A stretch of DNA of 64,000 nt from NCBI GenBank assembly GCA_018302805.1, contig JAGVZD010000003.1, positions 6,538 through 70,537 of the forward strand, given 5' to 3'. Source of the DNA: Candidatus Woesearchaeota archaeon (GTDB taxonomy: Archaea; Nanobdellota; Nanobdellia; SCGC-AAA011-G17; JAGVZF01). The notes under the pieces are model-generated. The model worked only from the letters and a program-made list of their open reading frames with translations. It was not told the origin of the DNA and did no database searches. Both the position numbers and the translations under genes were made by a program. This document shows, in pieces, positions 38,072 to 64,000 of this stretch. Each line of letters starts with the position of its first letter. The first letter of the stretch is position 1.

Positions 38072-38093
38072 AATATACTTTAGATTATATATT

Positions 38094-41827: not shown

Positions 41828-41875
41828 AAGTACAATAATATTTATATATTACAAATTCCACACTTTTATTCTTAA

Positions 41876-42505
41876 GTGGGGGTAATTATGAAAAAAAGGT
41901 GGATAATAATCTTAGCTATAGGTATAACATTAAGTCTCACACTGATATTTTCCAAGTTTATTAATTCTCCAACAGAAGAAATCCATTATAATGGAAAGGA
42001 TATAGAAGTTAATTCTGAGACAATTGCTTCAGATGATATTGAAAAGGAATATCAACAATCAAAAAATCTTGGGTTTAGTAATTTAGAAGTATCAAAAGAT
42101 GATATAGCAAACTCCCTCATAAATGAAAAATTACTTCTTCAAAGAGCAGATAAAATCGGAATAATAGTATCTGATGAAGAGCAGGAAAATACTTTTAATA
42201 ATTTTTTAACAAATTCTAAATTATCTGAAGAAGAACTTAATACACAGCTTGAATCAACAGGATCCAATTTGGAAGAATTTAAACTTGAATTAAAAAATTA
42301 TTTAATAATATCAAAATTGATTGATAAAGAAGTTAAACCAAATGAAATTACATTAAGTGATAAAGAATTTAATGAGCTGACGCAAGATGACCTAGATCTT
42401 CAAAATGTTAAATTCCTAATTGAAGATGAACTAATAATCCAGAAAAAACAAGAAGCTATTGATAATTATATTGAAAAATTAAGAAACGGAGCTGATATTA
42501 ATTAA
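41876..42505 (+). CDS. Secreted or membrane-anchored protein (SurA-N-like helical region)
   Basis: N-terminal TM (WIIILAIGITLSLTLIF). Length 209 aa. Acidic. Confidence 0.35.
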   Translation: MGVIMKKRWIIILAIGITLSLTLIFSKFINSPTEEIHYNGKDIEVNSETIASDDIEKEYQQSKNLGFSNLEVSKDDIANSLINEKLLLQRADKIGIIVSDEEQENTFNNFLTNSKLSEEELNTQLESTGSNLEEFKLELKNYLIISKLIDKEVKPNEITLSDKEFNELTQDDLDLQNVKFLIEDELIIQKKQEAIDNYIEKLRNGADIN

Positions 42506-42743
42506 ACTTTTACCTATTAAAAGAGTTGAATTTATACTTATCTTGATATTACTATTTCTCAACTTTGCTGTTTCTTTTATTCCGCTACAAAAACATTTCG
42601 TTAAGCATTGCATGCATAGAAAACCAGCCACTCGAAGGGCCAAAAATGGTCGGAGAGACAGGCTTCTAAGTTATGAACGTCACAAACATTATAGGAAATC
42701 TAACCACGTCACGACTGGTATCGGTATTAGTGGGGCCGGCCTG

Positions 42744-45700
42744 ATGAATAGGAGAAATGGGATGAGGAATATTTGGATGTTGGGAGTGATATTTGTAGCT
42801 TTATTAGGGTTTTCCCAAGTTGTATGGGCATTAGAACCTTGGGAAATGAAAAAAGAACATATTGGGGTTATTATAGATTCAGGACATGCATTATATGGAA
42901 CCAATGATCCAGATAGTGCTAATGCTAATAGTCAAAACTTTCTTAGATATGATACAAAGAACGCAAAAGGAAAAACTAGAGGAAGATCTTGTATTGATCC
43001 TTCATTAATACCGTCTAATGACATTGATGACACTTGCGGTAAATACCTAAGATTTAATAATTTAAATAGGGTTGTAACTAGAATACAAAATGACTATGTG
43101 GAACCAGAAGGAATGGTTTTTTTTAGCCGTGGTTTACAAGACATACTAAAAACCAATAATATTGCATCTGAAAATACCAGAGATCTTTCTACCCCATTAG
43201 ATGTAATGTTGGGAAATCCTTTCAGAATAGATGCTGTAACATTTAAATTCACTACTAATGAAGATGATGAAACAATCGTTCCGCTATTTATCTATAATCC
43301 CAATACAGTCCTTAGTATTCCACAAATAAATTTACAAGTAACTGTTACTATTACACCAAGTAGAGATGCAATGTCGATTACAGTTTCTCAGCAGAATTCA
43401 GGTGTTATTTATCAGCAAAATATTAATCAAAATACTCCTCAAAACGAGTTTAATAGAGTATTAGCAATCTCAGTCCCTAACCTTCCCTTTCTAAATATTC
43501 AAAGTCCCCCTGGAGTTGAGATCGATAGATTAGAGTCAATAGTAGAACCGATTAATAATATTCACATAAACTATGAAATAGAAACTGATGATTACTGGTT
43601 AGGCGTCAGACGTTCGAATATCGAAAATGATTGGAGACACGGAGCAGTAACATATTTATGTGAAATGCGGGATCCTTCGTTCTGCCCTTTATCGTCATCG
43701 AACCCAACAGACCCCAGTGATGAAAATTTAATAAGAGAATTATTTGGTGAGGAGGTACAGGACAATGATAGAGAAAAGGATTGGATATTGATAAGTTACC
43801 ATTCGAATTCGGGGGGGAATTCTGATACAAGAGGTTTATTTTCATCACGCCCTAATTTTAAGAGAGATGTTCAAATTGGTTCAAGTGATCAAGTCATAAG
43901 TTGTCATAATTTTTTAGAACCTCAAAATAATATCAACGGTGACCCAAGTCGTAAAAATGATCTATTAACACTTTCAAAAGCACGTTTTACCCAATTTTTA
44001 GCTGATGCCATTGTATCAGAAATCCAGAGAAATAACATAAATTGGCCACAACGTGGAAGAATTATTGATGAAGCTGTCTGCGATAAGGAAGGAGCAGTCA
44101 TCTTATCAGGTAGTATACCTTCTTCAATTATTGAACTTACTTTTCATGATAACATCAATAGCCTTAACACGTTACTAGCATATAATAAAATTAATGAAAA
44201 GAATATTGTAGCTCAAGGAACATTCGAAGGCATCAAAAAATTCTTCAATGCTAATGTGGAAAGTACTGATGATCAAGGTCAAAATTGGGATGTTTTCAAT
44301 ATGATCTCTGATTACCCTAATATTGATGATGTTTGGGCTAAAGGTACCGGGTTTCCAAAAAATCATAATATCAGACTTAATGTTGTGCGACACAAGAATT
44401 ATAATACCGATTATACAAGGGGGGAAGATATAAAAAAAATAGCAGTTAATTCTCAAGAAAATGCTGCTAAAATAGGAATTATAACTGACAATTTTGGGAA
44501 TTTCGGTCCTGTAAAAGTCTGGACTCCAACAATGGAAGGTGAATTTGATATCGTTGCTAAAATATATGATTATGAAAAATTTCAGTGGGTTGATGCTGTA
44601 GACAGTATGGAACTAGGTTCGGACGGCAAAAGCAAACCGGGTTTTGAAGTTATGAAATGCGGTAGTATTTGCAGTTATATCTATAGTTCTGATGAATCAA
44701 GTGCTCTAAAAACAAACTTTTTCACAAATGAAAAAGTTTATGCTGCATTCGCACTTGAGAATGATGGCAATGAAGAAGTCCAAGCAAAAATATTTGTTAT
44801 AAAAAATGAAGTAGCTGAGGCTGGTCCTTCATGGCAAAATTTAGCAGACCAAAGTTCTGACGGTCCTGAAGAAATAACAATACCCGCAGGTGTTGGACAA
44901 GTTGAAAGCGGTAAACAGGTTGTATGGTTACCCCCTCTAACTGAAGGCGTGTACAGACTCGTTGTTGACTTAAATAACAACGGATTGTTTGATTCTGCTG
45001 ACAGAATGGCTGCTGATCCTTTTACAGTACGTAATATAATTACACAGCTTGATGCGGATGTAGATCCAGAAGGCAATGTTCATGTTATTGGAATTGCAGA
45101 AAACACAAATTCCAACCCACCACCAATAATTGCAACAAGATTAATGTATGCAAGAATTCCTCATGACTCTAATTATAAGATAGATCTCGAACATCCAGAA
45201 TTATTTGATTGGAGTGTAGCAAAAGAAGTAAAATTTACAGAAATCCCAAGAACACCCGCAAGAATTTCAAATCCTAAGATTGCTGTTGATATGAATGGCG
45301 AACCGTATATTATTTGGGAAAGGCAAACTGCAGATAATAAATGGCTTCAATGGACAAAGTTAACTAAGGATGGTTTAATAGATACCCAATTCTTTTTTGT
45401 TATCAAAAAACAGCAATCTGAAGGTACTCTGGGAGAACCACACCAACTTTTTGAAAATGTTTTCCTTGCTGAAGGTGGATTACTTAATATATCTTCATTT
45501 AGGAGTTCAATAAACGTAAGTGAATCAGTAGCTGTTGCTCCAATAATATTTTATAGATCCCAACCATTTGTGGAATATGATCTAAGAGAGCCAGATATTG
45601 CAATAGATCCACAAGATAATAGGCCAATTATAACAGCTATCATAAATGCAAAAGCTCCATCAACTTTATTTATGCAAAAGATTCTTCCAATTCTATCACT

Positions 45701-48700
45701 AGGTATTAATCCAAACTTTTTCATATACCCATCAGGCACATTTTCTCAAGGTTTTAACCTAATTAATGAAGCAATAATCCCACCTCTATATTTTGCTGAA
45801 AGTGTACAGGTAGCAAAACTTATTGGAACTGAACTTGGTGTTTTTTCATTTGGTTGGCCAAGTGATTATACTCCTGGTGGTGTGAGATATGGACAAGATG
45901 TAGCAGTATTTACCGATACCATGAATGATATTGCAGACCTTGTTAATGATATGGCAATTCCTAGTGAACGTTCCGATCACTGGAAGTGGAGACATTTGGA
46001 TAGTGCAAGTTTACGTACTAATTTTGATATGTTTTCAAATCCACAAATAGAAGTGGATACTCTTAGTAATCTACATGTTATTTATCACAAAGGTTCATCG
46101 ATATTTGTAGGTGCTACAGGAGATGTTTGGGATCCTGATAATCCAAACCACCTCAACTTTGCACCAATTTTAAGAGAAATGGATGTCTTTGTCAATAATT
46201 CTTTTAGCGTAGTCATGTATAAAAAAGTTCCAATTACATCACAGGATCTACCATCAAATTTTAACATGATTAAAATTCCTCAAGCAGGATCAGATCCAAT
46301 TCAAGTGTCCCTAGAAGCATCTCAGGTTAAACCAAATTCTATTGACTTGGCAATTGATTCTGATGGAGAAAGCCACATTGTTTGGCAATCAAATAATAAA
46401 TTGAAATATACAAAGAGTCCAGATTTTGAAGATAATAATGTATCCCAAATTTTGTCTGCAGAATTAGGAATTTCAAAAATTATTATAGATACAAAAAATA
46501 ATCCAATAGTTTTATGGAATGATAAATTAGGTCTTGAAGAGAAATTATTATTAAAAAAAGTTCTAACCATCAATAGAACTGCAAGTTTTAGTCATACAGA
46601 AGAGATTGCAAGTTCTACTAATATCAGAAATCCCCTGTTAGCTATAAATTCTATTTCCAATAATAACACTGGGGCTAATAGAATATATTCTCTTTGGATA
46701 AATTCAAATGATGTTGGTTCTAGAGTATTACTCAAAAGGACAATGCCACATACAACTATTTTACTCATTTTAGATGGTTTTAATAGCTCTGTATTCTATG
46801 ATAATCTAAATTCTATGGATATTTTGAAAGATCTCATCGAAAATAATCCAACAGTTAATGGATCTGCTGTTATTCCAAGTCCTTTCCAAACATTTTCATC
46901 ACAAGCTTCTCTTATAACAGCATTGCAACCTGAAAATCATGGTATTCTGGGGGATAATTTCACAAGAGGCGATGGTCAGAATATATCATATATTCCTGAT
47001 AACTCACATGATGTTAATCAAGATCTCAATGTAAGTACAATATATGATTTTCTCAGCACGCACAATAGGAGTAAAGCAGTAATCGCAAGTATAATTACAA
47101 AAGGGGTGGGAGGTCAATTAAACGATAAAATCATACCTCCAACGACAATAGATTGGAATTCCGGTTCAAATAATGCAGAAGATTCTATTAATTCTTATTT
47201 TAATATTTTGAATACCAATGATCAAAATACCTCAAATGATCCAGCAGAATTAATAACTGTTTATGTGTTGAAAAATACACACAATCAGATATCTGATTAT
47301 GCTTCTTATGCAGCAAATGTCGATGATACTATAGGCCTTCTAATAGATAAACTCCAAAACATGAAGATGTTTAACGATACTGTTTTGATTATTACCTCAG
47401 ACCACGGTGAAAGTGGCAATATAAACGATACATTAGTACCTATTATAATTACTGGTCCTGGACTTAATTATTTCAGTGCGCAAGGACAAAGTTTTGAAAT
47501 AGAAGAAAATATCGATATAACAGATATCGGAACAACAACAACATTTTTCGTAGCTGGTAAAAGTTTAGTTGATTCAATGGTTGGCGTTGACGGTCAAAAC
47601 TTATTTGATCCTCAACTCTCCTTTACTGCTGAATCTCCTGTTAGATTGCACTTATACGATGAAGAAGGTAATCATGTAGGCCCCAAAGCAAATAATATCG
47701 AGACTGAAATCCCTCTTTCCTATTACACAGAAGATCCAGAAACTGATGCCAAGGAAATTATTTTACTTCAAGCTCCAGAAAAATATAGATTCGAACTGGA
47801 ATCATATGCTGAAGGGCCAGTTCATTTATCATTAAGGCATTCTAAATTAGGACAAAAAATTTTAATAGAATATCCTGAATTTATTATTGTTAATCATTCA
47901 AGAGGTAAAATCGATGCCATAAATGATGATTTTATCTTGGTATTAGACAAAGATAATAACGGTATTTTTGAAGAGACAATTGAACCTTCAACATCATTAC
48001 AAATTAATCAGAGGAACAATTCAGCAACAATAGATATTCTTAATCTCGAATTAAGAGAACCTATTGAAGTTGATGTTGTAGATAATACTAACGCAAAAAT
48101 AATTTTAGAAGCCTATGAAGAAATTTCCAATGAAAATATACAGATTGAAAAATTAAACTTCATAGAATCAAATGGTTTAATTACTGACAATGTGTTTGGA
48201 GTAGATTTTGCAATTAACATTTCTATGAGTTCTAATATATTAGCTAATACTAGTAGTGAATTAGCAATAGTAATACCAGAAGATATAATTAAAAATAAAG
48301 GTATAGCTAAATATTCTTTGTCCATATTTGAACTTGTCTCAAATGAAAGTATTAATCTTAATTTTAGCGAAGAATCTGAGGCAATAATAATTGTAGATGG
48401 AAATGATGTTTATGTTGATACTTTTGCATTTTTTGATGACAAAACAAACATTTTAACTACAGGAATTTCCGGTCCAGGAACTTTCGTAATACTTGCAACA
48501 GATAAAATACCATCAATTACTGACATTATTATAAATCCAGCAAAAACTTCAATTAGCACTTCAAATATTTCTGTTACATCTTCTGTAATAGACAATCAAG
48601 CTGTATCAAATGTTAGTATAATGTTCAATGGCAATACAATTGAAATGCAACATCTTGGTGGCTCCCAGTATACAGCAACACTTATTGGTCCAACCCAATC

Positions 48701-51173
48701 AGGAAAATATCCTATTTTAATTAGTGCCGTAGATAATAATGGTAACCTTGCTGAAAAAACAATTTTCTATGAACTTGATGATGTAGCACCAAATATAACA
48801 ATAAAATATCCTGGGGATAATAGCTTCTTAATAAGAAATACCTTTGACTTTACATATTTTGTTGATGAATTATCAAATCAAACATTTATATTAGATGGAT
48901 TAGAAACAAATACAAATATTACATCACCTTATAGAACAACTAAAATTAGACTAAATAATTTGTCAGCAGGTCCGCATGAGTTGTCAATAAGAGCAATTGA
49001 TGATGTAGCTAACGAAGCTCTTAAAACTATAAATATTAATGTAGACAGCCATAATACACTAGTTTCAAATCTTCAACTACCTCTCGCATCAAAACCAGGT
49101 TTAGTTATTCCGATTAGTTTCAAAGTGGAAAATACATTATCTTTTGATGAGTCAGAAGTCTTAGCAGAATTGGTTGTAGATAATACAGTAGTTTCTACTC
49201 AAAACCTCTCTTTAGGAGGAAATGAAATAAAGCAATTAAGCTTTGAATATATCTCAATTGCTGGCAGGCATAATATAACAATAAGAACAGTTCCAATTGT
49301 AGGAGAAAGATTCTTAGATGATAATCGTTTAAGTGCAGAATTACTTGTCACAAATAAAATACCTTTACTTCTTGTTGAAGATGATGGTATACAAGAAACT
49401 AATGCATTCATAAATGCAATAGCCACAGCAAATGTTGGTGGCATGCCTGGATTTGATTATGTTCTATGGGATATTGAAGAAAAAGGAATTCCTTCTACAA
49501 ATATACTACAGCAATTAAGGGGGGTTATTTGGTACACAGGAACTTCTGAAGAAACATTAAGTGCTCAAGAAAGGAAGAATATTGAAGAATATGTTGAAAG
49601 TGGTGGTAACTTGTTCATCTCAGGAAGTAAAATTGGTAGTGATATTGGATCAACAGATATCTATAATAATGTATTTAAATCGAAATTTGTAAGTCAATCT
49701 ACTCAAAATATTGTAGAAGGTAAACTATTTACAATTGGTCAAGGCTTCTTATTTGAACTAAATCAGGCAGGAGAAGTTATAACTCCAAGCAGTGGAACAA
49801 AAACAGCATTTGTATATACAGGAGACGGAGCTGCAGGTCTCACATATAATGATGAGATCAAACATATTACTTATTTATCATTTGCATTTGAAAGTATGCC
49901 TACTTTTGATGAGCAAAGAAATTTAATGAGTAAAGTACTTGATTTCTTTGAAATTGATGTAGCTGCCCCAATAATTTCAGATATAAAACCATTATCAGGA
50001 ACAAAATACCCAATTAACACATCAAACATATCAGTAAGCATTAAAACAGATGAAATCGCAAATTGTAGACAAAGCATTACACCAGTATTATTTGAATCAA
50101 TGAATCCATTTGATGTTACAAACTCAAAAACACATTCCACTTCAGTTCAAGATATACAAAATGGTGTTAATACAACCATTAGAATTGCTTGTAAGGACTC
50201 TGATGGAAATATTGGTATTGCTGAATCTCAAATCTTTATATGGAATAGAACATTTAATGCGCCTGTAATTCAACCTATTGATGATTTAACAATTCTTGAA
50301 AATGGGACATTACAACTTCAAGTCCAAGTTTCAGATCCTGAAAATGATGATTTTCAAGTTATACTTGAAGACTTTGAAAGATTAGGAATAACTAGAATTG
50401 CAAACCACTTCACATTTGATAATACAAGTACTTTTAATTTAGAATCAAATTTCGAAGATGCAGGACAGTATTTCTTAAGAATTAAAGTTATAGATTTATA
50501 TAATATAAGCTCAGAAGAATTTAAATTGACAATTGAAAATGTAGATAGACCTCCAATAATAGAGCAAATAAATCCTCAATTCCTAATGGAAGGTAATTAT
50601 TATAATCTAACAGTTATTGCATCTGATCCTGATAATGATCAAATAACATTCTTTGACAGTACTGAATTATTCAATATTAATCAATATCTTGGAAAGATTG
50701 CATTTACACCAAAGCAAAGTCAAATTGGTATTTATACTGTAAACATTACTGCACGAAGTTTACTTTATGAAATTGTGCAGGAGGTTCAATTCATTGTAGT
50801 AGATAATGAAAATAGATCAGCTCTTCCAGTAATAGAATTTATCCCCCCAAAAACAGCTTTTGTAGATCATCCTTTTGAACTTCAAGTAATTGCAAATGAT
50901 TCAGATAGTAGTCAACTTATCTATTTTGATAACTCAGATTTCTTTGATATAACTCCAACAGGATTCATAAATTTCACCCCAACAGAATCACAACTAGGTA
51001 GTCATGTATTTACAATTCAAGTTACAGATGGCACATCATTAGTACATAGACAAATTAACATTTTAATCACTAGACCTCCCTTTGTTAGATTATTACCCAT
51101 TGGAAATATAACTGCTATTGCAGGAGAATTAATTACAATCAGACCAAATATAACATTTGTAAACGGAACATAA
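42744..51173 (+). CDS. Giant surface protein 1, multidomain (2,810 aa from this ATG)
   Basis: The ORF is uninterrupted to 51173. The ORF-track TTG start at 42543 is unlikely, and the ATG at 42744 yields MNRRNG...LGVIFVALLGFSQVVWA, a signal anchor. Domains seen: an alkaline-phosphatase-superfamily core (LILDGFNSS...ITSDHGESGN), Ig/CARDB-like domains, a GATase1/ThuA-like domain (LLLVEDDG...GGNLFISGS) and three cadherin-like repeats at the C-terminus. Confidence 0.8.
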   Translation: MNRRNGMRNIWMLGVIFVALLGFSQVVWALEPWEMKKEHIGVIIDSGHALYGTNDPDSANANSQNFLRYDTKNAKGKTRGRSCIDPSLIPSNDIDDTCGKYLRFNNLNRVVTRIQNDYVEPEGMVFFSRGLQDILKTNNIASENTRDLSTPLDVMLGNPFRIDAVTFKFTTNEDDETIVPLFIYNPNTVLSIPQINLQVTVTITPSRDAMSITVSQQNSGVIYQQNINQNTPQNEFNRVLAISVPNLPFLNIQSPPGVEIDRLESIVEPINNIHINYEIETDDYWLGVRRSNIENDWRHGAVTYLCEMRDPSFCPLSSSNPTDPSDENLIRELFGEEVQDNDREKDWILISYHSNSGGNSDTRGLFSSRPNFKRDVQIGSSDQVISCHNFLEPQNNINGDPSRKNDLLTLSKARFTQFLADAIVSEIQRNNINWPQRGRIIDEAVCDKEGAVILSGSIPSSIIELTFHDNINSLNTLLAYNKINEKNIVAQGTFEGIKKFFNANVESTDDQGQNWDVFNMISDYPNIDDVWAKGTGFPKNHNIRLNVVRHKNYNTDYTRGEDIKKIAVNSQENAAKIGIITDNFGNFGPVKVWTPTMEGEFDIVAKIYDYEKFQWVDAVDSMELGSDGKSKPGFEVMKCGSICSYIYSSDESSALKTNFFTNEKVYAAFALENDGNEEVQAKIFVIKNEVAEAGPSWQNLADQSSDGPEEITIPAGVGQVESGKQVVWLPPLTEGVYRLVVDLNNNGLFDSADRMAADPFTVRNIITQLDADVDPEGNVHVIGIAENTNSNPPPIIATRLMYARIPHDSNYKIDLEHPELFDWSVAKEVKFTEIPRTPARISNPKIAVDMNGEPYIIWERQTADNKWLQWTKLTKDGLIDTQFFFVIKKQQSEGTLGEPHQLFENVFLAEGGLLNISSFRSSINVSESVAVAPIIFYRSQPFVEYDLREPDIAIDPQDNRPIITAIINAKAPSTLFMQKILPILSLGINPNFFIYPSGTFSQGFNLINEAIIPPLYFAESVQVAKLIGTELGVFSFGWPSDYTPGGVRYGQDVAVFTDTMNDIADLVNDMAIPSERSDHWKWRHLDSASLRTNFDMFSNPQIEVDTLSNLHVIYHKGSSIFVGATGDVWDPDNPNHLNFAPILREMDVFVNNSFSVVMYKKVPITSQDLPSNFNMIKIPQAGSDPIQVSLEASQVKPNSIDLAIDSDGESHIVWQSNNKLKYTKSPDFEDNNVSQILSAELGISKIIIDTKNNPIVLWNDKLGLEEKLLLKKVLTINRTASFSHTEEIASSTNIRNPLLAINSISNNNTGANRIYSLWINSNDVGSRVLLKRTMPHTTILLILDGFNSSVFYDNLNSMDILKDLIENNPTVNGSAVIPSPFQTFSSQASLITALQPENHGILGDNFTRGDGQNISYIPDNSHDVNQDLNVSTIYDFLSTHNRSKAVIASIITKGVGGQLNDKIIPPTTIDWNSGSNNAEDSINSYFNILNTNDQNTSNDPAELITVYVLKNTHNQISDYASYAANVDDTIGLLIDKLQNMKMFNDTVLIITSDHGESGNINDTLVPIIITGPGLNYFSAQGQSFEIEENIDITDIGTTTTFFVAGKSLVDSMVGVDGQNLFDPQLSFTAESPVRLHLYDEEGNHVGPKANNIETEIPLSYYTEDPETDAKEIILLQAPEKYRFELESYAEGPVHLSLRHSKLGQKILIEYPEFIIVNHSRGKIDAINDDFILVLDKDNNGIFEETIEPSTSLQINQRNNSATIDILNLELREPIEVDVVDNTNAKIILEAYEEISNENIQIEKLNFIESNGLITDNVFGVDFAINISMSSNILANTSSELAIVIPEDIIKNKGIAKYSLSIFELVSNESINLNFSEESEAIIIVDGNDVYVDTFAFFDDKTNILTTGISGPGTFVILATDKIPSITDIIINPAKTSISTSNISVTSSVIDNQAVSNVSIMFNGNTIEMQHLGGSQYTATLIGPTQSGKYPILISAVDNNGNLAEKTIFYELDDVAPNITIKYPGDNSFLIRNTFDFTYFVDELSNQTFILDGLETNTNITSPYRTTKIRLNNLSAGPHELSIRAIDDVANEALKTININVDSHNTLVSNLQLPLASKPGLVIPISFKVENTLSFDESEVLAELVVDNTVVSTQNLSLGGNEIKQLSFEYISIAGRHNITIRTVPIVGERFLDDNRLSAELLVTNKIPLLLVEDDGIQETNAFINAIATANVGGMPGFDYVLWDIEEKGIPSTNILQQLRGVIWYTGTSEETLSAQERKNIEEYVESGGNLFISGSKIGSDIGSTDIYNNVFKSKFVSQSTQNIVEGKLFTIGQGFLFELNQAGEVITPSSGTKTAFVYTGDGAAGLTYNDEIKHITYLSFAFESMPTFDEQRNLMSKVLDFFEIDVAAPIISDIKPLSGTKYPINTSNISVSIKTDEIANCRQSITPVLFESMNPFDVTNSKTHSTSVQDIQNGVNTTIRIACKDSDGNIGIAESQIFIWNRTFNAPVIQPIDDLTILENGTLQLQVQVSDPENDDFQVILEDFERLGITRIANHFTFDNTSTFNLESNFEDAGQYFLRIKVIDLYNISSEEFKLTIENVDRPPIIEQINPQFLMEGNYYNLTVIASDPDNDQITFFDSTELFNINQYLGKIAFTPKQSQIGIYTVNITARSLLYEIVQEVQFIVVDNENRSALPVIEFIPPKTAFVDHPFELQVIANDSDSSQLIYFDNSDFFDITPTGFINFTPTESQLGSHVFTIQVTDGTSLVHRQINILITRPPFVRLLPIGNITAIAGELITIRPNITFVNGT

Positions 51174-51178
51174 TTAAA

Positions 51179-57100: not shown

Positions 57101-60100
57101 AATTCATCAAATAACATTGCACTTAAAACATTCTTTGTAGATGGACATGACTTATCTGTAACATCAATTAGTTTCATTCCAGCTTCTCCAGTATTTTCAG
57201 GAGAAACAGTAGGAATAATTGCAACCATCAGAAATAATATTAATGCAACTGCTGATTCTATCCGAGTAAATTTCTACGAAGGAACAGTTGATCTAGATCA
57301 TTTAATTGGATTTAGTGATATAGTATCGATAAACGGTAGCACTCAAAAAACTTCAAGTATAAATTGGCAAACAGCAGGACTACTTGGAAATAGAACTATA
57401 ATTGTTGAAGTAAATCCACAAAATTTCCCTGCAGAAGTTGAAAGAACAAATAATCGTGCCAATACAACATTTGAGCTCACTAGATTTGTTGCAGAACAAA
57501 TTCCAGACTTAATTACTTTTTTGAAAACTCCCCTTTTAAATGAAACAAATCAAAGCATAAGGGGTATAACTTCAAATGATTTCACAGGAGACGGAAAAAT
57601 AGATTTTGCAATTGTAACAAATTCCGGAAATTTAGTATTGTACGAAAATAATATAACTTCAGTATCTGAAATTGGAAATAAAAATATTGTTGTGTTCAAT
57701 CGTAATCAGATTGTAAATCTAGGAGAATTTACTCAAGGATTAGCTTCTGCAGATTTCCAGTTTGATAATTTCCCAGACATTATTGTAGGAACTTTAAGTG
57801 GAAAAGTATATCTCTTTAGAAATACAAATGGCATAATTCCACAAAATGGCGAAGTTATTTTTGATGCAGGTGACGATGTCTATGGTTTAACAATAGGAGA
57901 TGTTGATAATGATAATGATTTTGATATAATTACAGGTAATAGAATTGGTCATGTTGACTTTTTTATAAATAAAGGTCCCAATACATTAATATTTGAATTC
58001 AATAAAACTATCACCACAAGAGATCAACCTTATGGCTTAACAACAGGAGATTATGACCTTGATGGCCATATTGATATGATGATTGGAGATAGACTTGGTC
58101 AATTAGAGAGAATTGTATTTGAATCAAATAATTATAATGGATTCTTATTTGCTGACATTGGCGAATTTGCACACGGTTTAACAACTGCAGATATAGATTA
58201 TAGTGGCAAACTTGACCTATTTGCACTAGGCTTTAATGGAAATATTAATTTGTATTATAGTAGAGAAGGTGGCTTAGTTGCAGAACCATTAATTGTGGGA
58301 AATAAAAGAGAATCTTCTGGACTTTCATCAGGAGATTATGACAGGGACAATGATATAGATTTAATTGTAGGGTCTAATACCGGTGAGATTACTTATTTTG
58401 AAAATTCTCTTAGAATTCAAAAAAGCTTTTCACCTTTAGCAAGCCCTCCGCTTAGACCAATTCAAATATTCACAAACTTCAAAAACCCATATGCAAGACA
58501 AATGATTAATGTAACACTTCAAGAAAAGCTTAGCGAAAATCTGACTTTTGTGCAGGATTCATTCAGAGTTGATGATTTAAATAGTGCTGACCTTCATTTC
58601 TATGACACATCGCTTGATACCCCACAATCAAGATACCATTTCTATTTAAATCTTCCAAGCACAGTATTTGTAAAAAGGTGTTCAGCAACAGGAGAGTGTG
58701 GGGGTGCAGGAAGTTTCATCTATTCAGGAACTGCAGATATAATCGGAAATTCAATTACTATATCAAATGTACTAGATATTTTTAATCACATGCAGTCTAT
58801 ATATTTGCGTGAAGGATTTTCACTTGAATACATTGTCAAGTCCATGACTCCAAGTCCTCAAATATCTGCAAAATCTCAAATTAATTATACCCTACTTGGA
58901 CTGTTTAATACTCAACCTACAAGTTTCTTATTAAGTGATGATGTATCAAATTTAAATGATCAACTAGCAAATTCTAAGAATATAAATCCACTTCCATATA
59001 AAAATGATAAGGCATTTGCAGAAGCACTTATAAGAATCCCAGATTTTACTCCAATAGATATTATTTTCAGGAATCAAGAAACTATAGTACCCGGAGAAAC
59101 AATAATCTATGATGTTGTAGTTCAAAATCTGAATAATATCTCTATAAATAATGTTAATATAACATTTTTTGCAGATGGAAATAGGTCCTTAGGTTCACAA
59201 TTATTTAACATTGGAGCTTACGGAACCTCAATTATTAGGGGTCCTTCATTTACAAGTACATTCAACACACCAAGTATCAAAGTTATTGTAAACCCTGGAA
59301 ATACTGAATTTGAAACAAATAACATAAATAATGAAATTACTGAATATATAGGTACGGCAAATGCCACAGACCTAGCAATTGTTAATATTATATCAGATAA
59401 ATTAATCTATCAAGAAGGAGAACAAATTAGTTTTAATGTTACTGTAAGAAATGTAGGTACCGAACCAAATAGTTTTGGCTCGGTTGAAATAAAAGAACAC
59501 TTTAGGGGTGATTGTGGTGGTGTTCCAGATAATCTTAAACTAAGTTGTATTGTAAGTAACGATACTCAAATACCTCCAGGCGGATTTTGTGATCACGGAA
59601 TGACATCTAGTAATTCAAATACAGGTTCAATAAATCCTGGTGAAGAGAAAAGTTTATTATTTAATTATAGGCTTGGAAACTATAAGGCTAGATCCCAGGG
59701 TAACTATTTCATTAGTGCCATTCTTGGCAACATAAATGGAAGAAGCTCAAATATTGATTCATCTTTAATCAACAATGTTAAATTTACTCAAGAACCAATT
59801 GAAGTACTACCTTCACCAATAGATTTACAATTGGATTATGATTTACCACCTTTTGTATGTGGTCTAGAAAACTTACATCCCCTCTCACTGTCAATATTGA
59901 ACGAGTCCACAGTTCAAATTACTTATGACCAATTTAATAATGGTGGCCAAGATATAAATACACCATTTGATACATTGCTTTACTTAGACAATAATGATTC
60001 CATCCCACTTGCAAGAGTTACAACTAGCTTTATTATGAATCATTCTTCCAAAACTGAGGTTAAACAATTTTATCTAACAAATTTAACACCTGGTGACCAT

Positions 60101-63100
60101 AGAATTTATTTATATCTAGATTATGGCCAAAGCCAAGAACAATCTACTGCTAGGGCAGTTTCTGATCAGGGTTTTGAATTAACTGCTTCAATTCCTGGAA
60201 TAGTGGGGGAGGGAGAAACAACCACTCTTTTAATAGCCCCAATAAATAATGGATCTTCAATTTCCTTGATAAGAAATGAAATTGAGGTAAGATCAGCCGG
60301 ATTTACTCTTCAAGTGATTCCACATTCAATTAATTATGTAATTATAAAGAAGAATAATAATCAACCAATCCTAACAATCGGAGATTTAGTTGAAGTTATT
60401 ACAAATGGTGGATTAAATTCATCAAACGCTCCTATTGATTTGTCTAACTTTATTTCAATAGATGCAACATCTGCAAATTTAACAGATATGTTACATAATA
60501 AATCTTATAAATTATCAATTCCGGGTTCATTAACAGAATCAATAGAATCAATCAGACATAAGAATTATGTTGATTTCAGATGGAAAGAAATAATTGCATC
60601 TGATTTATTAATAAATCCATCTTTTGCTGCTCCAAGAGATTTAGTTACTATTTCAGCCTCTATAAGTAATGACGCTGATTTCCCATCAGGTGAATTTACA
60701 GTTAAACTTGTTATTGATGGAATTGTACAAGATCAAAGACTATTATCTCTAGGGGCAGGCGAATCTCAACCAGTTTCTTTTACTTATATAATACCTACAA
60801 GTGCAGTTTTATCGCATGATATTAAAATAATTGCAGATAGTGAAAATGTTATACTTGGAGAAGATGAATCAAACAATCTTGTAGAATCTTCTATTGCCAT
60901 CTCAGCAGATTATGAGCTCAACATTTTATCACGAGAAAATGGTATTAATAAATTATCCACCTTTGCTTTCGTTGATAATAATTTTGTATCACAACCAATT
61001 GGCTATGAAACGGTGAACATGGAATACGATGCAGCACCTTACTTTTTTGATTATGATTCAGATGGAGATTTGGATTTATTGGTTGGTTCCCTAGATGGAA
61101 AAATATATAGTTATGAAAATAAAGGTGGCAGTATATTTGAGGAAACTACCTGGGAAAATCTTGAAAATGTTCCTCAACAAATAATTATAAACGCTCAAAA
61201 TCAAGGTAATTTAGTTAGTAGAATTTCCACCTTAGATACTGGTGCAAGATCTGTACCAAGATTTATTAATATTAATGGAGATAATTATCCTGAATTAGTT
61301 ATCGGAGATGCACATGGTAGGCTTAGGATGTATCAGAAATTATCATTATTTGTTCCTGGTATTGGGATTAGATCCTTATGGAATTTAACAAATTTAAATA
61401 TCCTTAATAATCATAACCTAAAATTAACAAAGGTAGTCCCAGCATTTGCAGACCTTGATGCTGATGGTGATTCAGATCTTATTTTGGGAGATTCATCTGG
61501 ATTATTAAGAGGTTTCGAAAGAACAAATCAGAACAATACATTATTTTCTCCAATAGATTGGGGGTTGAATGGAATATCAAGTGATGGAAATTCAGCACCA
61601 TTCTTATTTGATCTAAATGGAGATAATGACTATGATTTAATTATTGGCAGTCATTCTGATATTACTATTTATGAAAATATTGGAAATGCTTCACAACCTT
61701 CATGGCAATTATCAGCCACAATTACTAATTTAACATCCAATAATACTGATTTTATACCGGCATTGGCATTTGCTCAAGGAATAAAAATGGTTTTAGGAAG
61801 TAATAATCCTCAACAAATGGATTTAAGAAAAGGATACTTTGAACCTGTTGGTGTTCAAGTAATAAATTATGCGCAAAATGAGATGGAATTAAATAGAATC
61901 TCCTTATTCGCAAAAGACAGAATTTCTGGTGCCTTAATAACATATTTATTCCAAGACGGTCCATTCGAAAAAAGACTGCTTAATCCTAGATCGTTCAATT
62001 GTGCAGATCCAATAGATGTTATATTTAGTGGATATCGTATAAAAGCTGTTGATGCCTTAGAAAAAGAATATAAGATTAATATCCCAAGCGATTTACCATC
62101 CAACGTAGAATTAAGTGCGAGAGCCGATAAGGTTGAAAATGTTAATCCACCATATTTCTATATTTATGGGGAAGGTGGTTGTGGCCCAACAACATATCTC
62201 GGAGGAGTAAAAGGAGCTCCAATTTATACATTAAACCCTCAGTTAAATTTAAACACATTTGATATTTTTGTGAATGAAAATGAAATTTATGAAATGAGTG
62301 GTTCGTACAAAGTTTTCATTAATAATACTCTTGTCCATGAACAAATTTGTGACGCCGATAAATTCTGTCCAATTTTTGGCCTTATTCCTAACCAAATAAA
62401 TACAATCTCTGGAGGTGGAGAAATAATTAGACATTCAATTGAAGAAAAATCTTTATTTGATATTGTTGAAGCAACTCAGCCTCCATTAGAATTGAGGATA
62501 GAAAATGCTTTTGGTTTAGAAATTAAGCCAAGTTACATTGAAGAAATTGTTGTTTCTTTAAAAAACAATAATAGAAGAGATTTTGAAATTGACAGGATTT
62601 CATTGGAACTTATAAATAATGATACTATAGTTGATTTATTTACTGATACAAATGCATTCAGTATTACACCAAATGAAAAGGTATTCAAGTCATATAATGT
62701 TCTTATACCAGTAGGAATCTCTCCTGATTCTACACTAGTTGCAAGAGCAATTGAAAAAAATAGTTTTGCTGATAATCAATATTCAAGGAATTCTATATCA
62801 GAAATACTTCCAGAACCAATTGAAAATGATCCATTAACAATTATCTCTGATCTTTCACCAAATGCTATCTATAATTCAAGTTCAGTCAATCCAATAATAG
62901 ATGAACAAGTTTTAGGTGGATATCAATATCCTTATCTTGTTGATTATTGTAATGTATGTGGTACTCAGCGTCCTTTTGAATGCACCAAGGCAAATAATAA
63001 CTTCTTAAAAAAGCAATCTTGGATATCCCAAACAGTATACAAAGCAGAATATCAGCTCCTAATGAGACAAACATGCGAACCTGGTTGTTTCGATGAGAAA

Positions 63101-64000
63101 TCCCACATAACTTCATGGATCAACGGTAAGAATATTGCAACACGTACTACAAATTGTAATGTGGTTCAAATTGGTTGGACACCTATTGCAGAACAGCTAA
63201 ATTATCAATCAAATAATGAGTTTGCAAACTTTAATTTTGGCCCTCACAGAAAGTTAGATTATTTGTTCTATGAAATAAAAGGTGTTGATTTTGCTGACGA
63301 CACAATATATGAAACAGAGCCTGCAATTCAGGTTAATATTACTTCATTTGGAGAAAACGATCATTTAAGAAGACAATATGAGGAACAAATCAATATAACA
63401 TTCAAAAACAATGATGATAACCCAAGAAGTATTGATGTTCTTACATTTGATTTAATCTCAAATAATAAAGTAATTCATCTTCTTACAGACACTGATAAAA
63501 TTATATTTGCTCCAGGACAAATAACCACTAAATCTTACAAAGTTAGAATTCCAAGTGATGTTCCATTAAACTCTGAATTAAGAGTAACTGTAGAATATTT
63601 ATTTGGATTCCCAGATAAATTATGGCTCAGAAATAAAGAATTGAATAACAATGATTTCTTAAGTGAGAATACTACAGATTATTTCTATGGAGATACACTG
63701 CCAACAACAGAATCTAGCTTATACAGAAAACACTTTTTTGTTCCTCCTGACATTACAAGAGCTGAAATGATACTTGGAGACACATCATTTAATACTGAAG
63801 TATATCTTAATGGAGAATTCCAAGGAAAAGGATTTCCAGGATGGTCCCCAATGACAGTATCTGTTGGATTTAAAGAAAGTCAAAACAATTTGCTTTCTAT
63901 AAGTGGAGCAATTCCAGAGACAGAAACACAATTATACAGTGGAAGGTCTTTCACAGGTGGAAAAGTAACTAATGCTGAAGAAGATGTTTTCTTCACTGTT
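51179..64000 (+). CDS. Giant surface protein 2 (over 4,270 aa, C-terminus beyond the window)
   Basis: Frame 2 is open from 51179 to the window end; no frame-2 ORF terminates in this region. Contains an N-terminal TM, five LamG (ConA-like) repeats each followed by a thrombospondin-type-3-like DxDxD/Cys-rich linker, CARDB-like domains and two blocks of FG-GAP/VCBS repeats. Confidence 0.8.
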   Translation, partial: MNLKTFYQDKKGWIKRNPIFLLISLIIVIVTIILFVGFTKADGTCVAPPTGLVSWWPADGNTNDITDGNNGTLRGGTTFATGKVGQAFTLDGIDDYVEVADASNLDITNALTIDAWIYPQAIEAWDRVVYKGEGDSLNNVAYVLGLSANGGVYFGLFQGNSQLYINGGATTILINNWTHIAGTWNGSLMQIYVNGVQQTETQGLTGSINSVNAPLKIGIGASGGSPHAFFGLIDEPGVYNRALNQTEIQSIYDAGTAGKCKVQDTTPPAVLGEPNLTVTLNTATVKFTLNEPSNTTTIYGTISGGPYPNSVSNSYFSTQPYYTLTNLSSSTTYYYKTTFCDQNGNCFTSQELSFSTSILNCAAPPSNLVSWWPGNGISTDIVDGNHGTLMNGATYTTGLVNQAFRFDGVNDYVNINPDFLDGVCQGTIDLWFKRGPWTEGYTTLFTKSNGGSWVNNHIQISRDSTTDYIALTISNNAQSTQNNVRVGPINENIWYHIAMTWSGSNLKGYLNGVEQSSVATTICLPSDSTLVAIGKGAAGTNRYFNGSIDEIEIFNRALNLTEIQSIYNSGSSGICLPDADNDTIYDYSDRCPGTNQQDNTTFEIATGCKQSQVDSNLDGFCNPGINFSTVLCVFSCATPPSNIVSWWPGDGNADDIIDSNSGTLQGGASYSTGLINQAFSFSTNGYAITPSRPVSSLIANTFTIEFWANPGSVSDRPTFGFAGSGVSNSANPVASYDTGLNFGNGAGYQLMQALPNAAANAWTHYVIVDDGSNYRVYVNGVQQYSQAISVNPTSSSNRQFLFGQSGFSSGYEHYFNGKIDEFIIYNRSLNQTEVQSVYSSGLYGKCAPDADNDTIYDVIDNCPLVSNFNQSNSDSIQLGKYPNYSGWSDSRISTCGSQGIMGGYNIFGTGASTSKIFDLPSGTHTLNFTFVKIDSWDSEFARAYVNDIQVWNKQYTPTDGIQICGGGFNWYEIIDPISVQFNHSGGPLVLRFDSTIDGGPTDESWGLDNIRIVGDSFGDACDNCPNVGNQNQNSNVCTDSDNDAVLDSVDYCPSTSQSDTSLFEIATGCKQSQVDTNLDNICNEGLNFATTLCTFACSPILNGLVTLWPAEGTPTDVIDSNHGTIQNSVSYVTGKIGQAFSFSNNAYITTSTYFPTLLNNFSFTLWVKPASTQVTYADIFGNHADGYKGIVLQQDVSNTNSYSWAYGSGSAWLGVPPVPFTANTWQHIAVVKDTNYCYLYVNGVERSRGNCQAPVVPNPNLNFMIARGYTSDRAFNGAIDDFAVFNRTLSVSEIQTIYNSGSGGICKPDNDNDTVPNFQDKCSSTSQSDTSLFELATGCKQSQVDSDLDGICNHGLSFATSLCTASCSIAPTGIASWWPGDGNANDIVDNNTGILQGGATFATGFVNQSFSFDGSNDYIDTGYGRFSSIVDTFTIEFWAYPLATRTATSEATSGATGISGQRYAIFPEHGVYLGGGSNAGAGVSVGTNGISVFEHAANYMPSLLVYNAPISGWNHIAVVYTNKQPKLYLNGQLVRTGLTSTTVVHPGNDIGETGTTYGYYSGLIDEVAVYNRPLSSSEIGQIYGAQAAGKCKTQLPPSAVFLIPNASSSFNLNSTIRWSISDPDSELFTSNVFYNNGTQIVFIDQTASTNLFWDTSLLTEGLYSLLLNVSDGQNSISINSDQFKIDHTSPTITLISPRDNDIRYGGSLQFSFNASDNFDIVLSCSLVIDEQRNLAISAIRGVTTTLTVGNLSEGLHNWKVVCTDSAGLRSESNSNTFTMDNSVPSIEAVNFANTFTGEQVILTVNVTSVRQLSSVQATIPTVAQNGTQINSTISLSFDNNTLLFTGTFAAPPQPGTYISSISAANIIGGVAIQHVPFTILLGVDLVIEPESISILPLTPFTGSITSVTALVKNIGNRDAFNVNVSLSSLGQNLSSVKINVSANGTTTVVLPWDTKGFAGNVQISIRALGIFTESNSSNNIALKTFFVDGHDLSVTSISFIPASPVFSGETVGIIATIRNNINATADSIRVNFYEGTVDLDHLIGFSDIVSINGSTQKTSSINWQTAGLLGNRTIIVEVNPQNFPAEVERTNNRANTTFELTRFVAEQIPDLITFLKTPLLNETNQSIRGITSNDFTGDGKIDFAIVTNSGNLVLYENNITSVSEIGNKNIVVFNRNQIVNLGEFTQGLASADFQFDNFPDIIVGTLSGKVYLFRNTNGIIPQNGEVIFDAGDDVYGLTIGDVDNDNDFDIITGNRIGHVDFFINKGPNTLIFEFNKTITTRDQPYGLTTGDYDLDGHIDMMIGDRLGQLERIVFESNNYNGFLFADIGEFAHGLTTADIDYSGKLDLFALGFNGNINLYYSREGGLVAEPLIVGNKRESSGLSSGDYDRDNDIDLIVGSNTGEITYFENSLRIQKSFSPLASPPLRPIQIFTNFKNPYARQMINVTLQEKLSENLTFVQDSFRVDDLNSADLHFYDTSLDTPQSRYHFYLNLPSTVFVKRCSATGECGGAGSFIYSGTADIIGNSITISNVLDIFNHMQSIYLREGFSLEYIVKSMTPSPQISAKSQINYTLLGLFNTQPTSFLLSDDVSNLNDQLANSKNINPLPYKNDKAFAEALIRIPDFTPIDIIFRNQETIVPGETIIYDVVVQNLNNISINNVNITFFADGNRSLGSQLFNIGAYGTSIIRGPSFTSTFNTPSIKVIVNPGNTEFETNNINNEITEYIGTANATDLAIVNIISDKLIYQEGEQISFNVTVRNVGTEPNSFGSVEIKEHFRGDCGGVPDNLKLSCIVSNDTQIPPGGFCDHGMTSSNSNTGSINPGEEKSLLFNYRLGNYKARSQGNYFISAILGNINGRSSNIDSSLINNVKFTQEPIEVLPSPIDLQLDYDLPPFVCGLENLHPLSLSILNESTVQITYDQFNNGGQDINTPFDTLLYLDNNDSIPLARVTTSFIMNHSSKTEVKQFYLTNLTPGDHRIYLYLDYGQSQEQSTARAVSDQGFELTASIPGIVGEGETTTLLIAPINNGSSISLIRNEIEVRSAGFTLQVIPHSINYVIIKKNNNQPILTIGDLVEVITNGGLNSSNAPIDLSNFISIDATSANLTDMLHNKSYKLSIPGSLTESIESIRHKNYVDFRWKEIIASDLLINPSFAAPRDLVTISASISNDADFPSGEFTVKLVIDGIVQDQRLLSLGAGESQPVSFTYIIPTSAVLSHDIKIIADSENVILGEDESNNLVESSIAISADYELNILSRENGINKLSTFAFVDNNFVSQPIGYETVNMEYDAAPYFFDYDSDGDLDLLVGSLDGKIYSYENKGGSIFEETTWENLENVPQQIIINAQNQGNLVSRISTLDTGARSVPRFININGDNYPELVIGDAHGRLRMYQKLSLFVPGIGIRSLWNLTNLNILNNHNLKLTKVVPAFADLDADGDSDLILGDSSGLLRGFERTNQNNTLFSPIDWGLNGISSDGNSAPFLFDLNGDNDYDLIIGSHSDITIYENIGNASQPSWQLSATITNLTSNNTDFIPALAFAQGIKMVLGSNNPQQMDLRKGYFEPVGVQVINYAQNEMELNRISLFAKDRISGALITYLFQDGPFEKRLLNPRSFNCADPIDVIFSGYRIKAVDALEKEYKINIPSDLPSNVELSARADKVENVNPPYFYIYGEGGCGPTTYLGGVKGAPIYTLNPQLNLNTFDIFVNENEIYEMSGSYKVFINNTLVHEQICDADKFCPIFGLIPNQINTISGGGEIIRHSIEEKSLFDIVEATQPPLELRIENAFGLEIKPSYIEEIVVSLKNNNRRDFEIDRISLELINNDTIVDLFTDTNAFSITPNEKVFKSYNVLIPVGISPDSTLVARAIEKNSFADNQYSRNSISEILPEPIENDPLTIISDLSPNAIYNSSSVNPIIDEQVLGGYQYPYLVDYCNVCGTQRPFECTKANNNFLKKQSWISQTVYKAEYQLLMRQTCEPGCFDEKSHITSWINGKNIATRTTNCNVVQIGWTPIAEQLNYQSNNEFANFNFGPHRKLDYLFYEIKGVDFADDTIYETEPAIQVNITSFGENDHLRRQYEEQINITFKNNDDNPRSIDVLTFDLISNNKVIHLLTDTDKIIFAPGQITTKSYKVRIPSDVPLNSELRVTVEYLFGFPDKLWLRNKELNNNDFLSENTTDYFYGDTLPTTESSLYRKHFFVPPDITRAEMILGDTSFNTEVYLNGEFQGKGFPGWSPMTVSVGFKESQNNLLSISGAIPETETQLYSGRSFTGGKVTNAEEDVFFTV

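Follow-up and report, generated by a model that had tools for sequence, protein, structure and literature searches.

In a 64,000-nucleotide (nt) stretch of a Candidatus Woesearchaeota archaeon genome (contig JAGVZD010000003.1, positions 6,538 to 70,537 of the forward strand; hereafter the window), we find two giant genes in tandem, the first of which opens with what its motifs and family profile identify as a divergent peptidoglycan amidase of the Amidase_3 family. Gene 1 (42744..51173, + strand; ATG at 42744, TAA at 51171-51173; 2,809 codons) has the domain make-up of a secreted or anchored multidomain hydrolase-type giant, and gene 2 (51179..64000, + strand; ATG at 51179) that of an adhesin with lectin, immunoglobulin (Ig) and propeller modules, which is still open at the window end after at least 4,274 amino acids (aa). 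A small SurA_N-like gene precedes them, and the three together form a cassette that recurs in related archaea. We lean, with slightly better than even confidence, towards reading the locus as a chaperone-assisted attach-and-lyse surface apparatus directed against peptidoglycan-bearing bacteria.

The amidase domain spans 42849..44258 (+; gene 1 aa 36-505) and contains a lineage-specific insertion of about 130 aa, located roughly at aa 160-290. When the insertions were cut out by hand, the spliced head aligned to positions 1-173 of the 174-position Pfam profile PF01520 at 21.1 bits (E 3.4e-4; cut-off 27). Its homologues P0018/P0045, P0016, P0017 and P0021 exceed the Amidase_3 gathering cut-off, with scores of 46-47 bits for P0018/P0045 and 53.5 bits for P0017. 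A family profile built from gene 1 and four homologues matched nine chains in the PDB, all of them Amidase_3 enzymes, and the best of these were CwlV (1jwq, E 4.7e-8) and AmiC (4bin, E 4.4e-7). The His-Glu-His zinc ligands and the catalytic Glu that define the family are all found in gene 1, at H48 (GVIIDSGH), E120/E122 (YVEPEG), H353 (ISYHSN) and E464 (IIELTF). In our family alignment (A1), neither the His nor the Glu of the two last-named motifs varies, and the gene 1 motifs align to DAGHG, SIHAN and LLEVGY of CwlV. From this we infer that gene 1 has amidase activity. A phage-endolysin origin of the domain was also considered and dropped, as tblastn returned no match in 50,697 phage records.

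Gene 1 belongs to a family of giants that share one scaffold. An exhaustive HMMER search of 1.84 billion cluster representatives yielded 21 matches at E <= 0.001, about 11 of which fall into this family. Of the nine family clusters that carry a name, eight belong to Woese-, Aenigm-, Nano- or Micrarchaeota; the remaining one is a partial sequence of 802 aa on a 2.4-kb contig that was binned to Candidatus Desantisbacteria. Related genomes hold relatives that are collinear with gene 1, and almost all of the named ones are DPANN archaea. P0018, for instance, is collinear over ~1,500 aa (28% identity over 1,087 aa plus 33% over 411 aa). The nearest full-length relative, P0045, carries Amidase_3 (E 6e-12), a weak PG_binding_1 match (E 1.4e-3), Phosphodiest and a Big_9 tail, and in P0017 this amidase is accompanied by a weak match to Glyco_hydro_19 (lysozyme/chitinase-like). 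The remaining relatives are giant proteins, 2,545-4,035 aa long, built on the common scaffold of beta-sandwich core, PDIAV region, Phosphodiest domain and Big_9 tail, and their heads differ: beta-helix, discoidin or Peptidase_S8. Gene 1 has this scaffold with the Pfam domains in the same order. The lytic head (Amidase_3 or subtilase) varies on a scaffold that is conserved in the DPANN genomes examined, and so does the accompanying adhesin gene.

In gene 1, the scaffold starts with a tandem beta-sandwich (44304..45053, +; aa 521-770) that is fn3- or macroglobulin-like, contains a conserved Cys pair and is common to P0018-P0026 at 25-31% identity (seven giants over the core). Its AlphaFold2 model, computed from an eight-sequence alignment, is all-beta with a predicted local distance difference test (pLDDT) score of 70. 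Foldseek returned the tandem beta-sandwich proteins CD109, RbmA, alpha-2-macroglobulin and C3 at template-modelling scores of only ~0.2, a generic level of similarity, and a PDB profile search with the conserved core of gene 1 gave no match. The second part of the scaffold (45054..46733, +; aa 771-1330), collinear with P0018, is made of repeated 'PDIAV'-type motifs. Its weak matches to BNR_4 (E 0.0035) and to the NCBIfam model PDIAV_lipo (E 4e-6) stay below cut-off, and the region is probably a beta-propeller. Next comes a domain of the nucleotide pyrophosphatase/phosphodiesterase (NPP) type within the alkaline-phosphatase superfamily (46755..47543, +; aa 1338-1600), which scores 73.1 bits against PF01663 Phosphodiest (cut-off 23, E 4e-20) over profile positions 1-221 of 342 only. 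It retains D1344, the nucleophile T1383, N1405, D1553 and H1554; the C-terminal third of the profile, which includes the last NPP His ligand, is unmatched, and the full catalytic set of nucleophile Thr and both metal sites is incomplete. The domain is probably degenerate and no longer a standard phosphodiesterase. The 90% cluster of gene 1 has one NCBI member, MBS3146247.1, which is labelled 'alkaline phosphatase family protein'.

The rest of gene 1 consists of Ig-type modules. Big_7, Big_13 and CARDB-like domains lie at 48528..49283 (+; aa 1929-2180), and aa 2113-2180 among them are similar to the CARDB domain at aa 3147-3217 of gene 2. Three Big_9/cadherin-like Ig repeats make up the C-terminal tail (50121..51170, +), where Pfam matched Big_9 (E 2.7e-13, three stretches), He_PIG (1.4e-4) and Cadherin_4 (3.3e-4); the Big_9 tail recurs in P0020, P0026 and P0045. 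A ThuA/DUF4159-like signal near aa 2250-2295 (E 0.02-0.05) was unconfirmed on re-scan. The initial annotation, made from the sequence by a model, had described both giants as adhesin modules throughout. This description fits gene 2 and falls short for gene 1, which has an Amidase_3 head and an NPP domain and whose relatives carry subtilase heads.

The cassette begins with a gene for a membrane-anchored, chaperone-type SurA_N-like protein (41876..42505, +) of 209 aa (205 aa in JGI/ENA calls), which matches SurA_N_3 (E 1.9e-11), SurA_N_2 (E 1.9e-10) and SurA_N (E 1e-9), all above the gathering cut-offs. We viewed the context of four homologous loci: L032 and L034 from Woesearchaeota, L035 from Aenigmarchaeota, and L036. 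A SurA_N-like gene lies directly upstream of the giant hydrolase in all four. The counterparts in L034 (E 4.6e-12) and L035 (E 9e-18) are homologous to the protein in the window; in L032 the match is weak, as its upstream gene has no BLASTP match to that of the window and reaches SurA_N_3 only below threshold (E 4.8e-5, 23.7 bits vs 27.2). Directly downstream of the hydrolase, L032, L034 and L035 encode a large FG-GAP/CARDB protein, and the L036 contig ends after 75 codons of its third gene. The window holds the same order on the same strand: SurA_N-like gene, gene 1, gene 2. Since the SurA_N-like gene is kept upstream in the relatives, the functional unit starts at 41876, outside the region from 42744 onwards that the initial annotation delimited; that annotation had also overlooked the two enzyme-type domains of gene 1 and the strain polymorphism described below. 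The genes of the homologous cassettes often overlap by 4 nt, which together with the 5-nt spacing of the two giants here suggests that the three genes are co-transcribed.

Giant genes of other kinds adjoin these cassettes. Next to the aenigmarchaeal cassette (L035 1-9204) lies the gene for a NosD/beta-helix protein of 3,359 aa that contains an NLPC_P60 peptidoglycan endopeptidase domain, and a 7,879-aa CARDB/FG-GAP/He_PIG/Big_9 protein neighbours a woesearchaeal one (L034 25119-30044). Runs of giant Ig/CARDB/FG-GAP genes also occur in two other DPANN-type loci, one with products of 3,125, 1,904 and 2,446 aa (L030; JGI 3300075147, 320 kb) and one with products of 4,338 and 2,560 aa (L031; GCA_016192985.1). 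The L030 giants adjoin a 1,350-aa DUF87 (HerA/VirB4-like ATPase) protein, which recalls the ATPase link of nanohaloarchaeal giants (PMC10266531).

Gene 2 is a lineage-specific assembly of common adhesin-type modules, all encoded on the + strand. Five laminin G (LamG; Laminin_G_3) domains with Cys-rich thrombospondin (TSP) type-3 linkers, as assigned by Pfam, occupy 51311..55951. The PF13385 match totals 374 bits (E 5.3e-113) in five copies, each covering nearly the full profile, and TSP_3 was found in a segment scan (E 7e-7). The array includes one jelly-roll-like insert without family assignment (about aa 880-1020), and its PDB matches include the LamG domain of an arabinanase (5hon) and an S-layer domain protein (4qvs). 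Ig-like (Big_7, Big_3_3, Big_13) and CARDB domains follow at 56126..57460 (aa 1650-2094), and then a first FG-GAP/VCBS propeller at 57557..58411 (aa 2127-2411; FG-GAP_3 E 7.7e-15 and 2.1e-11) that is similar to the downstream giants of L032, L034 and L035. A stretch of CARDB and DUF11-like beta-sandwich domains at 59039..60883 (aa 2621-3235), which matches a cell surface protein in the PDB (2l0d, E 1.7e-5), separates it from a second FG-GAP propeller at 60932..61768 (aa 3252-3530; FG-GAP_3 E 2.8e-12, FG-GAP 6e-8) with 29% identity to an L034 FG-GAP protein (E 2e-16). Over the whole of gene 2, CARDB reaches E 3e-29 with at least four domains, and FG-GAP_3 (PF13517; also PF01839) reaches 86 bits (E 2e-24) in six stretches that form two propeller-sized blocks, the propeller fold being predicted. 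Pfam thus recovered every module type that had been read from the sequence at the outset, i.e. LamG, TSP3, CARDB/Ig, cadherin-like (as Big_9 and Cadherin_4 in the gene 1 tail) and FG-GAP, and the lectin, Ig and propeller modules of gene 2 agree with its description as an adhesin.

The last 715 aa of gene 2 in the window (61856..64000, +; aa 3560-4274) form an orphan region without a Pfam match, which contains one internal repeat (aa 3761-3871 and 4041-4152). For aa 3550-4274 we detected no homologue among 5.8 billion proteins, in a search that is blind to the organism's own alleles; a single-sequence AlphaFold2 model of aa 3560-4274 had a pLDDT of 29.6 and was discarded. A search with the middle 2,001 aa of gene 2 revealed no orthologue: nine large proteins share Ig-type domains across 5-14% of the query, and both organism-named members of that set are archaeal. 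Two names suggested by NCBIfam were rejected. TafC (NF052521), a haloarchaeal Tat-fimbriae protein (PMC11821415), scored 152 bits against a cut-off of 410, and only its LamG part (187-367) matches, five times over; the match to the cohesion protein MtsC is at domain level and far under cut-off.

The reading frames of both giants are intact. No in-frame stop, which would have undone the initial annotation, occurs in gene 1 or in the 4,274 codons of gene 2 up to 64000, and the two tandem genes stand as first described apart from one codon in gene 1 (2,810 had been given), as does the 5-nt gap between them (51174-51178). In other assemblies the gene 2 product is likewise open, at 4,281-4,352 aa. 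The start of gene 1 varies by gene caller (42762 or 42777 elsewhere, 42612 with PGAP), and its frame stays open back to a TTG at 42543. A topology check found a single hydrophobic segment in each protein, N-terminal in both cases (gene 1 aa 9-31, gene 2 aa 14-44), in accordance with the signal anchors proposed earlier. In gene 1 the signal peptide or anchor covers 42744..42830 (+; aa 1-29, ...VVWA/LEPWE) and is followed by an A-x-[ED]-PWE motif that is kept in homologues; in gene 2 the signal anchor lies at 51218..51310 (+; aa 14-44, Kyte-Doolittle maximum 3.3). The window is A+T-rich (G+C ~30%), and archaeal housekeeping genes (L21e, Rpo4, S13, S4, S11, RpoD, SRP54, FtsY, GatB) lie upstream of the giants; NCBI lists the neighbouring proteins under 'Candidatus Woesearchaeota archaeon'. 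The G+C content at third codon positions is 0.18 in the giants and 0.19 in the housekeeping genes, which indicates that the giants are not recent imports.

Giant repetitive genes could also be assembly artefacts or pseudogenes arising from collapsed or chimeric repeats. Every contig breaks at about 42.0-42.6 kb and 64.0-64.2 kb, and some end or have a gap within the LamG array, as that explanation would predict. However, across 19 kb, from 41534/42565 to 61173 (the limit of the fetched flank), the window is matched at 100% identity by five contigs that come from different samples and assemblers. Tandem repeats are absent from the window region, and identity among the LamG repeats of gene 2 is only 60-77% at the DNA level and 24-53% at the protein level, so near-identical repeats that could collapse are lacking. 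Other genomes hold collinear homologues, and a second haplotype accounts for the contig breaks. We consider an artefact hardly credible and effectively refuted for 42744-61173; mis-assembly, which the initial annotation had named as a way in which it might be wrong, is excluded through 61173. Within the LamG array, one scaffold (L013) has a 10-N gap in place of 42 nt at 54001-54042, and two further contigs stop at about 54662 and 55598 although no near-identical repeats occur in the array; strains may differ in LamG copy content.

The second haplotype was found on a contig (L002) whose source sample contains the long form as well; exact-sequence searches trace the region to Rifle (Colorado) aquifer metagenomes. 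L002 is identical to window positions 26584-42376 (15.8 kb), then shows 36 differences across 200 nt in what we regard as the left boundary zone of a strain-variable island (42377..42575), and departs from the window after 42575. There, the peptide LILLFLSFAVS is joined in frame, via 18 unique bases, to NAEEDVFFTV, the ten codons that close the window (63971..64000, +), which start the last 53 nt of L002 and form the right junction shared by the two haplotypes. The co-occurring L002 strain thus lacks 21.4 kb, comprising gene 1 and all but ten of the 4,274 window codons of gene 2. In the window, an upstream in-frame open reading frame (ORF) with a TTG start (42543..42743, +; LILLFLNFAVS...) leads into gene 1, and its first 11 codons correspond to the signal-peptide-like gene start of the alternative haplotype. 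It is followed by a leader of ~200 nt (42576-42800) with a G+C content of 42-47%, compared with 25-30% around it. A small RNA or tRNA remnant in the leader (42576-42745) was considered and rejected, as Rfam gave no notable match and the folding z-score was +0.8. By eye, a box (AAACTTTTACCTATTAAAAG) similar to an element upstream of S13 and RpoD (see below) lies ~30 nt before TTG 42543.

All long-form contigs begin at 41.5-42.6 kb and run past 63970 by 53 nt (three ENA scaffolds), 139 nt (MEGAHIT, k=141) or 266 nt (JGI), i.e. they end 23-236 nt beyond the window end. Contigs break at both ends because the second haplotype co-occurs, and the polymorphism thereby explains the short-read assembly breaks around the giant genes. 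Sequence after the 63970/63971 junction could be a multi-copy C-terminal module; its peptide patterns and the exact junction DNA were unmatched in scans of genome and metagenome contigs. A diversity-generating retroelement or a repeat-driven break at the window end was set aside, as no repeat in the window matches the end and there is no reverse transcriptase among the annotated genes. Single-nucleotide differences between strains cluster upstream of the giants, in the 3' half of RpoD (41057-41518) and at 42377-42575; L025-L027 have 4-10 differences per about 150 nt there, and the preceding 15 kb are nearly invariant. Some assemblies (L025) carry CAA>TAA at 43890, a nonsense change in codon 383 of gene 1 (Q383*) within the amidase domain, and in this allele gene 1 is called as two pieces of 376 aa and 2,305 aa (P0010, P0008). 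Other variants are A574S and D1095Y. The polymorphism shows that the giant genes turn over within one population.

Gene structure, domains, family membership, synteny and polymorphism were observed directly; beyond them we infer a chaperone role for the first gene, a bacterial target and cooperation of the two giants. In the attach-and-lyse scheme, the SurA_N-like protein would maintain the nascent chains, which are very long, in a folding-competent state outside the membrane. Gene 1 would be exported via its N-terminal signal and would display its zinc amidase on a long stalk of beta-sandwich domains, the probable propeller, the NPP-like domain and the cadherin-like repeats. Gene 2, tethered by its N-terminal helix, would present five LamG modules, CARDB/Ig spacers and two integrin-like FG-GAP propellers, and may bind glycans or proteins of another cell, at which gene 1 would cleave the bond between N-acetylmuramic acid and L-Ala in bacterial peptidoglycan. 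Such an apparatus could give a small archaeon both attachment to bacteria and access to their contents or wall fragments. Since archaea make no peptidoglycan, the target of the amidase should be bacteria, either as live cells or as debris. The suggestion of the initial annotation that these are candidate host-attachment or cell-cell interaction systems stands as far as giant, extracellular, N-terminally anchored or secreted DPANN proteins are concerned, and the amidase points to bacteria and not to archaea as the target. The presence/absence of the 21.4 kb is compatible with a determinant of host or prey range on which selection fluctuates.

The nearest competing explanation, which we regard as possible though doubtful, is surface-tethered scavenging, in which the archaeon would digest free bacterial wall debris and polymers in groundwater without a partner cell and the LamG domains would serve as carbohydrate-binding modules. 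The hydrolase heads are compatible with this, as are the LamG matches to modules of carbohydrate-active enzymes such as arabinanase 5hon, and a salvage lifestyle would be in keeping with two further products of the window, an amino-acid permease and a fused nucleoside phosphorylase-phosphoribosyltransferase. Against it, without being decisive, cell-cell contact is the more typical setting for integrin-like propellers and cadherin-like repeats, and presence/absence and head swapping among close relatives are typical of partner-specific genes. It is rather unlikely, in our view, that both giants are pure adhesins that only attach to a host, probably an archaeon, with the enzyme-like domains as inactive binding modules. 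Lectin, Ig, cadherin-like and propeller modules do fill most of the 7,000 aa, the NPP-like domain appears degenerate, and DPANN archaea with archaeal hosts have giant adhesin-type proteins (PMC10266531). However, the four metal and catalytic residues of Amidase_3 are kept in gene 1 and in all homologues, and other hydrolase domains occur in relatives (Peptidase_S8, the weak GH19-like match in P0017, and NLPC_P60 in a neighbouring gene); the conserved residues and the alternative hydrolase heads argue that catalysis is under selection. Very improbable is a structural role of the giants in the cell envelope or S-layer of the archaeon itself. In its favour, the two products are large and acidic, have an N-terminal anchor and contain many N-X-S/T sequons, and one LamG match is the S-layer domain protein 4qvs, but the sequon counts are near expectation (44 vs 37 and 75 vs 68), the population includes both a nonsense allele and a strain that lacks the 21.4-kb block, and the substrate of the amidase, peptidoglycan, is not made by archaea (PMC12352652).

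Several observations weigh against the attach-and-lyse reading itself. Native gene 1 has no Pfam Amidase_3 match at E <= 1, and the assignment rests on the homologues, the family profile and the conserved residues instead of the native score; the domain is interrupted by the ~130-aa insertion, and no wall-binding domain was recognised in gene 1 itself. In the NPP domain, the Asp of the 'DHG' motif, present in six of six aligned homologues, is replaced by Thr (NTHNQ), and the ~130-170 aa that separate SDHG from VPIIITG in every homologue are missing. The third cassette gene shows only FG-GAP/CARDB-level similarity between genomes, and the LamG array occurs in none of the other cassettes examined. 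Gene 2 is read to aa 4274 only, and a second anchor or sorting signal would lie beyond the window end. The nonsense allele and the haplotype without the genes mean that the system is dispensable in some cells, and nutrition from free cell-wall debris fits the same domains.

The attach-and-lyse reading agrees with published proposals. For large extracellular murein-degrading proteins of Woese- and Pacearchaeota, binding and degradation of bacterial walls has been proposed, which implies bacteria as hosts or prey (PMC8204110, PMC9723730). Among archaea, peptidoglycan hydrolases are particularly prominent in Nanoarchaeota, and a haloarchaeal example kills bacteria experimentally (PMC12352652); LamG and giant surface proteins have been linked to host contact in DPANN archaea (PMC10266531). 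The closest of these by lineage and by their nature as giant secreted wall hydrolases are the fam00969 lytic transglycosylases of up to ~3,000 aa (PMC8204110, PMC9723730). Their catalytic domain is SLT/GH23, whereas that of gene 1 is Amidase_3, and neither giant has an SLT-type match in Pfam or NCBIfam (E <= 0.01-1). The gene 1 scaffold of beta-sandwich core, PDIAV region, NPP-like domain and Big_9 tail also differs from fam00969, for which a conserved SurA_N-like partner and a downstream FG-GAP giant are not reported in the texts consulted. The modular archaeal peptidoglycan hydrolases (PMC12352652) likewise combine an archaeal protein with a bacterial-type peptidoglycan-cleaving domain, but they are of ordinary size and pair the catalytic domain with a recognised wall-binding domain, unlike the 2,809-aa gene 1. 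Lacking such a recognised domain and scoring below the Amidase_3 threshold in native form, gene 1 would escape the screen used in that study.

The SPEARE proteins of nanohaloarchaea (8,880-9,409 aa), which we compared by their published description, are also giant, Ig-rich DPANN surface proteins with a signal peptide, and share with our giants a location in strain-specific regions; they are thought to mediate host interaction (PMC10266531, citing Hamm et al. 2019). As described there, SPEARE is a single gene whose product has a membrane segment at its C-terminus and a cytoplasmic VirB4/TraG-like ATPase domain; a secretion ATPase is encoded next to it, and the hosts are archaea (PMC10266531). 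In our locus, we found no ATPase domain in the 7,083 aa read and no ATPase gene close to the two giants within the window. Bacterial Amidase_3 autolysins and endolysins (CwlV 1jwq, AmiC 4bin, LytH) share the fold family, the His-Glu-His zinc site and the catalytic Glu with gene 1, which differs from them in its very low pairwise similarity, the 130-aa insertion, the archaeal giant multidomain context and the lack of phage relatives in tblastn. The initial annotation did not recognise the domain combination as described, and we did not find the family or the cassette in the literature searched; the kind of system, however, is already known, both as giant DPANN surface proteins and as lytic giants (PMC10266531, PMC8204110). 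Also not found in the literature searched were the swappable heads on the family scaffold, the SurA_N-like partner and the in-frame presence/absence polymorphism.

Several features elsewhere in the window deserve mention. The gene for FtsY, the signal recognition particle receptor, is apparently frameshifted at 23400-23640 (minus strand): ORF 24554..23628 stops inside the GTPase domain (Pfam SRP54 1-134/196), and the remaining GTPase domain (NIDAIILSKADIDERGGAA...) runs on in another frame, which could be a sequencing error, a pseudogene or recoding. A 52-nt element (ACCA[A/C]AACCTTTTTAAAT...) occurs at 36545-36596 and 40817-40868, directly upstream of the S13 and RpoD starts, and its TATA-like box about 25 nt before the start codon suggests leaderless transcripts for these genes. 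An orphan ORF of 427 aa (401 aa in some calls) with no Pfam match on record lies on the minus strand at 38094-39377, opposite in orientation to the otherwise conserved S13-S4-S11 ... RpoD cluster in which it sits. By eye it contains a LAGLIDADG-like 'HLMFDGSF' motif, and it may therefore be a homing-endonuclease-type insertion. In a single 427-aa gene at 30828-32111, a purine/uridine nucleoside phosphorylase domain (PNP_UDP_1) is joined to a phosphoribosyltransferase domain; the product would be a compact nucleobase-salvage enzyme that fits a scavenging lifestyle.

To our knowledge, most Woesearchaeota have no known host, and it is not settled whether any DPANN archaea live on bacteria. The locus offers a testable handle on it, with a predicted amidase head for assay, lectin and propeller ligands, and a small chaperone-like partner. 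The gene 1 amidase is too divergent for routine domain screens, and surveys of archaeal peptidoglycan hydrolases probably undercount this class. The cassette recurs with swapped heads in the two DPANN lineages examined, Woesearchaeota and Aenigmarchaeota, which suggests a general modular attack or attachment design. Taken furthest, in a version that we advance as speculation and think improbable as a whole, the cassette would be a chaperone-assisted 'attack organelle' for DPANN life on bacteria, by cross-domain episymbiosis or predation, in which interchangeable heads and an equally interchangeable adhesin gene set the host range and whole cassettes are swapped or lost by recombination between the conserved signal-peptide start and a likewise conserved C-terminal module. 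If this were true, the in-frame presence/absence of 21.4 kb would be a natural host-range switch.

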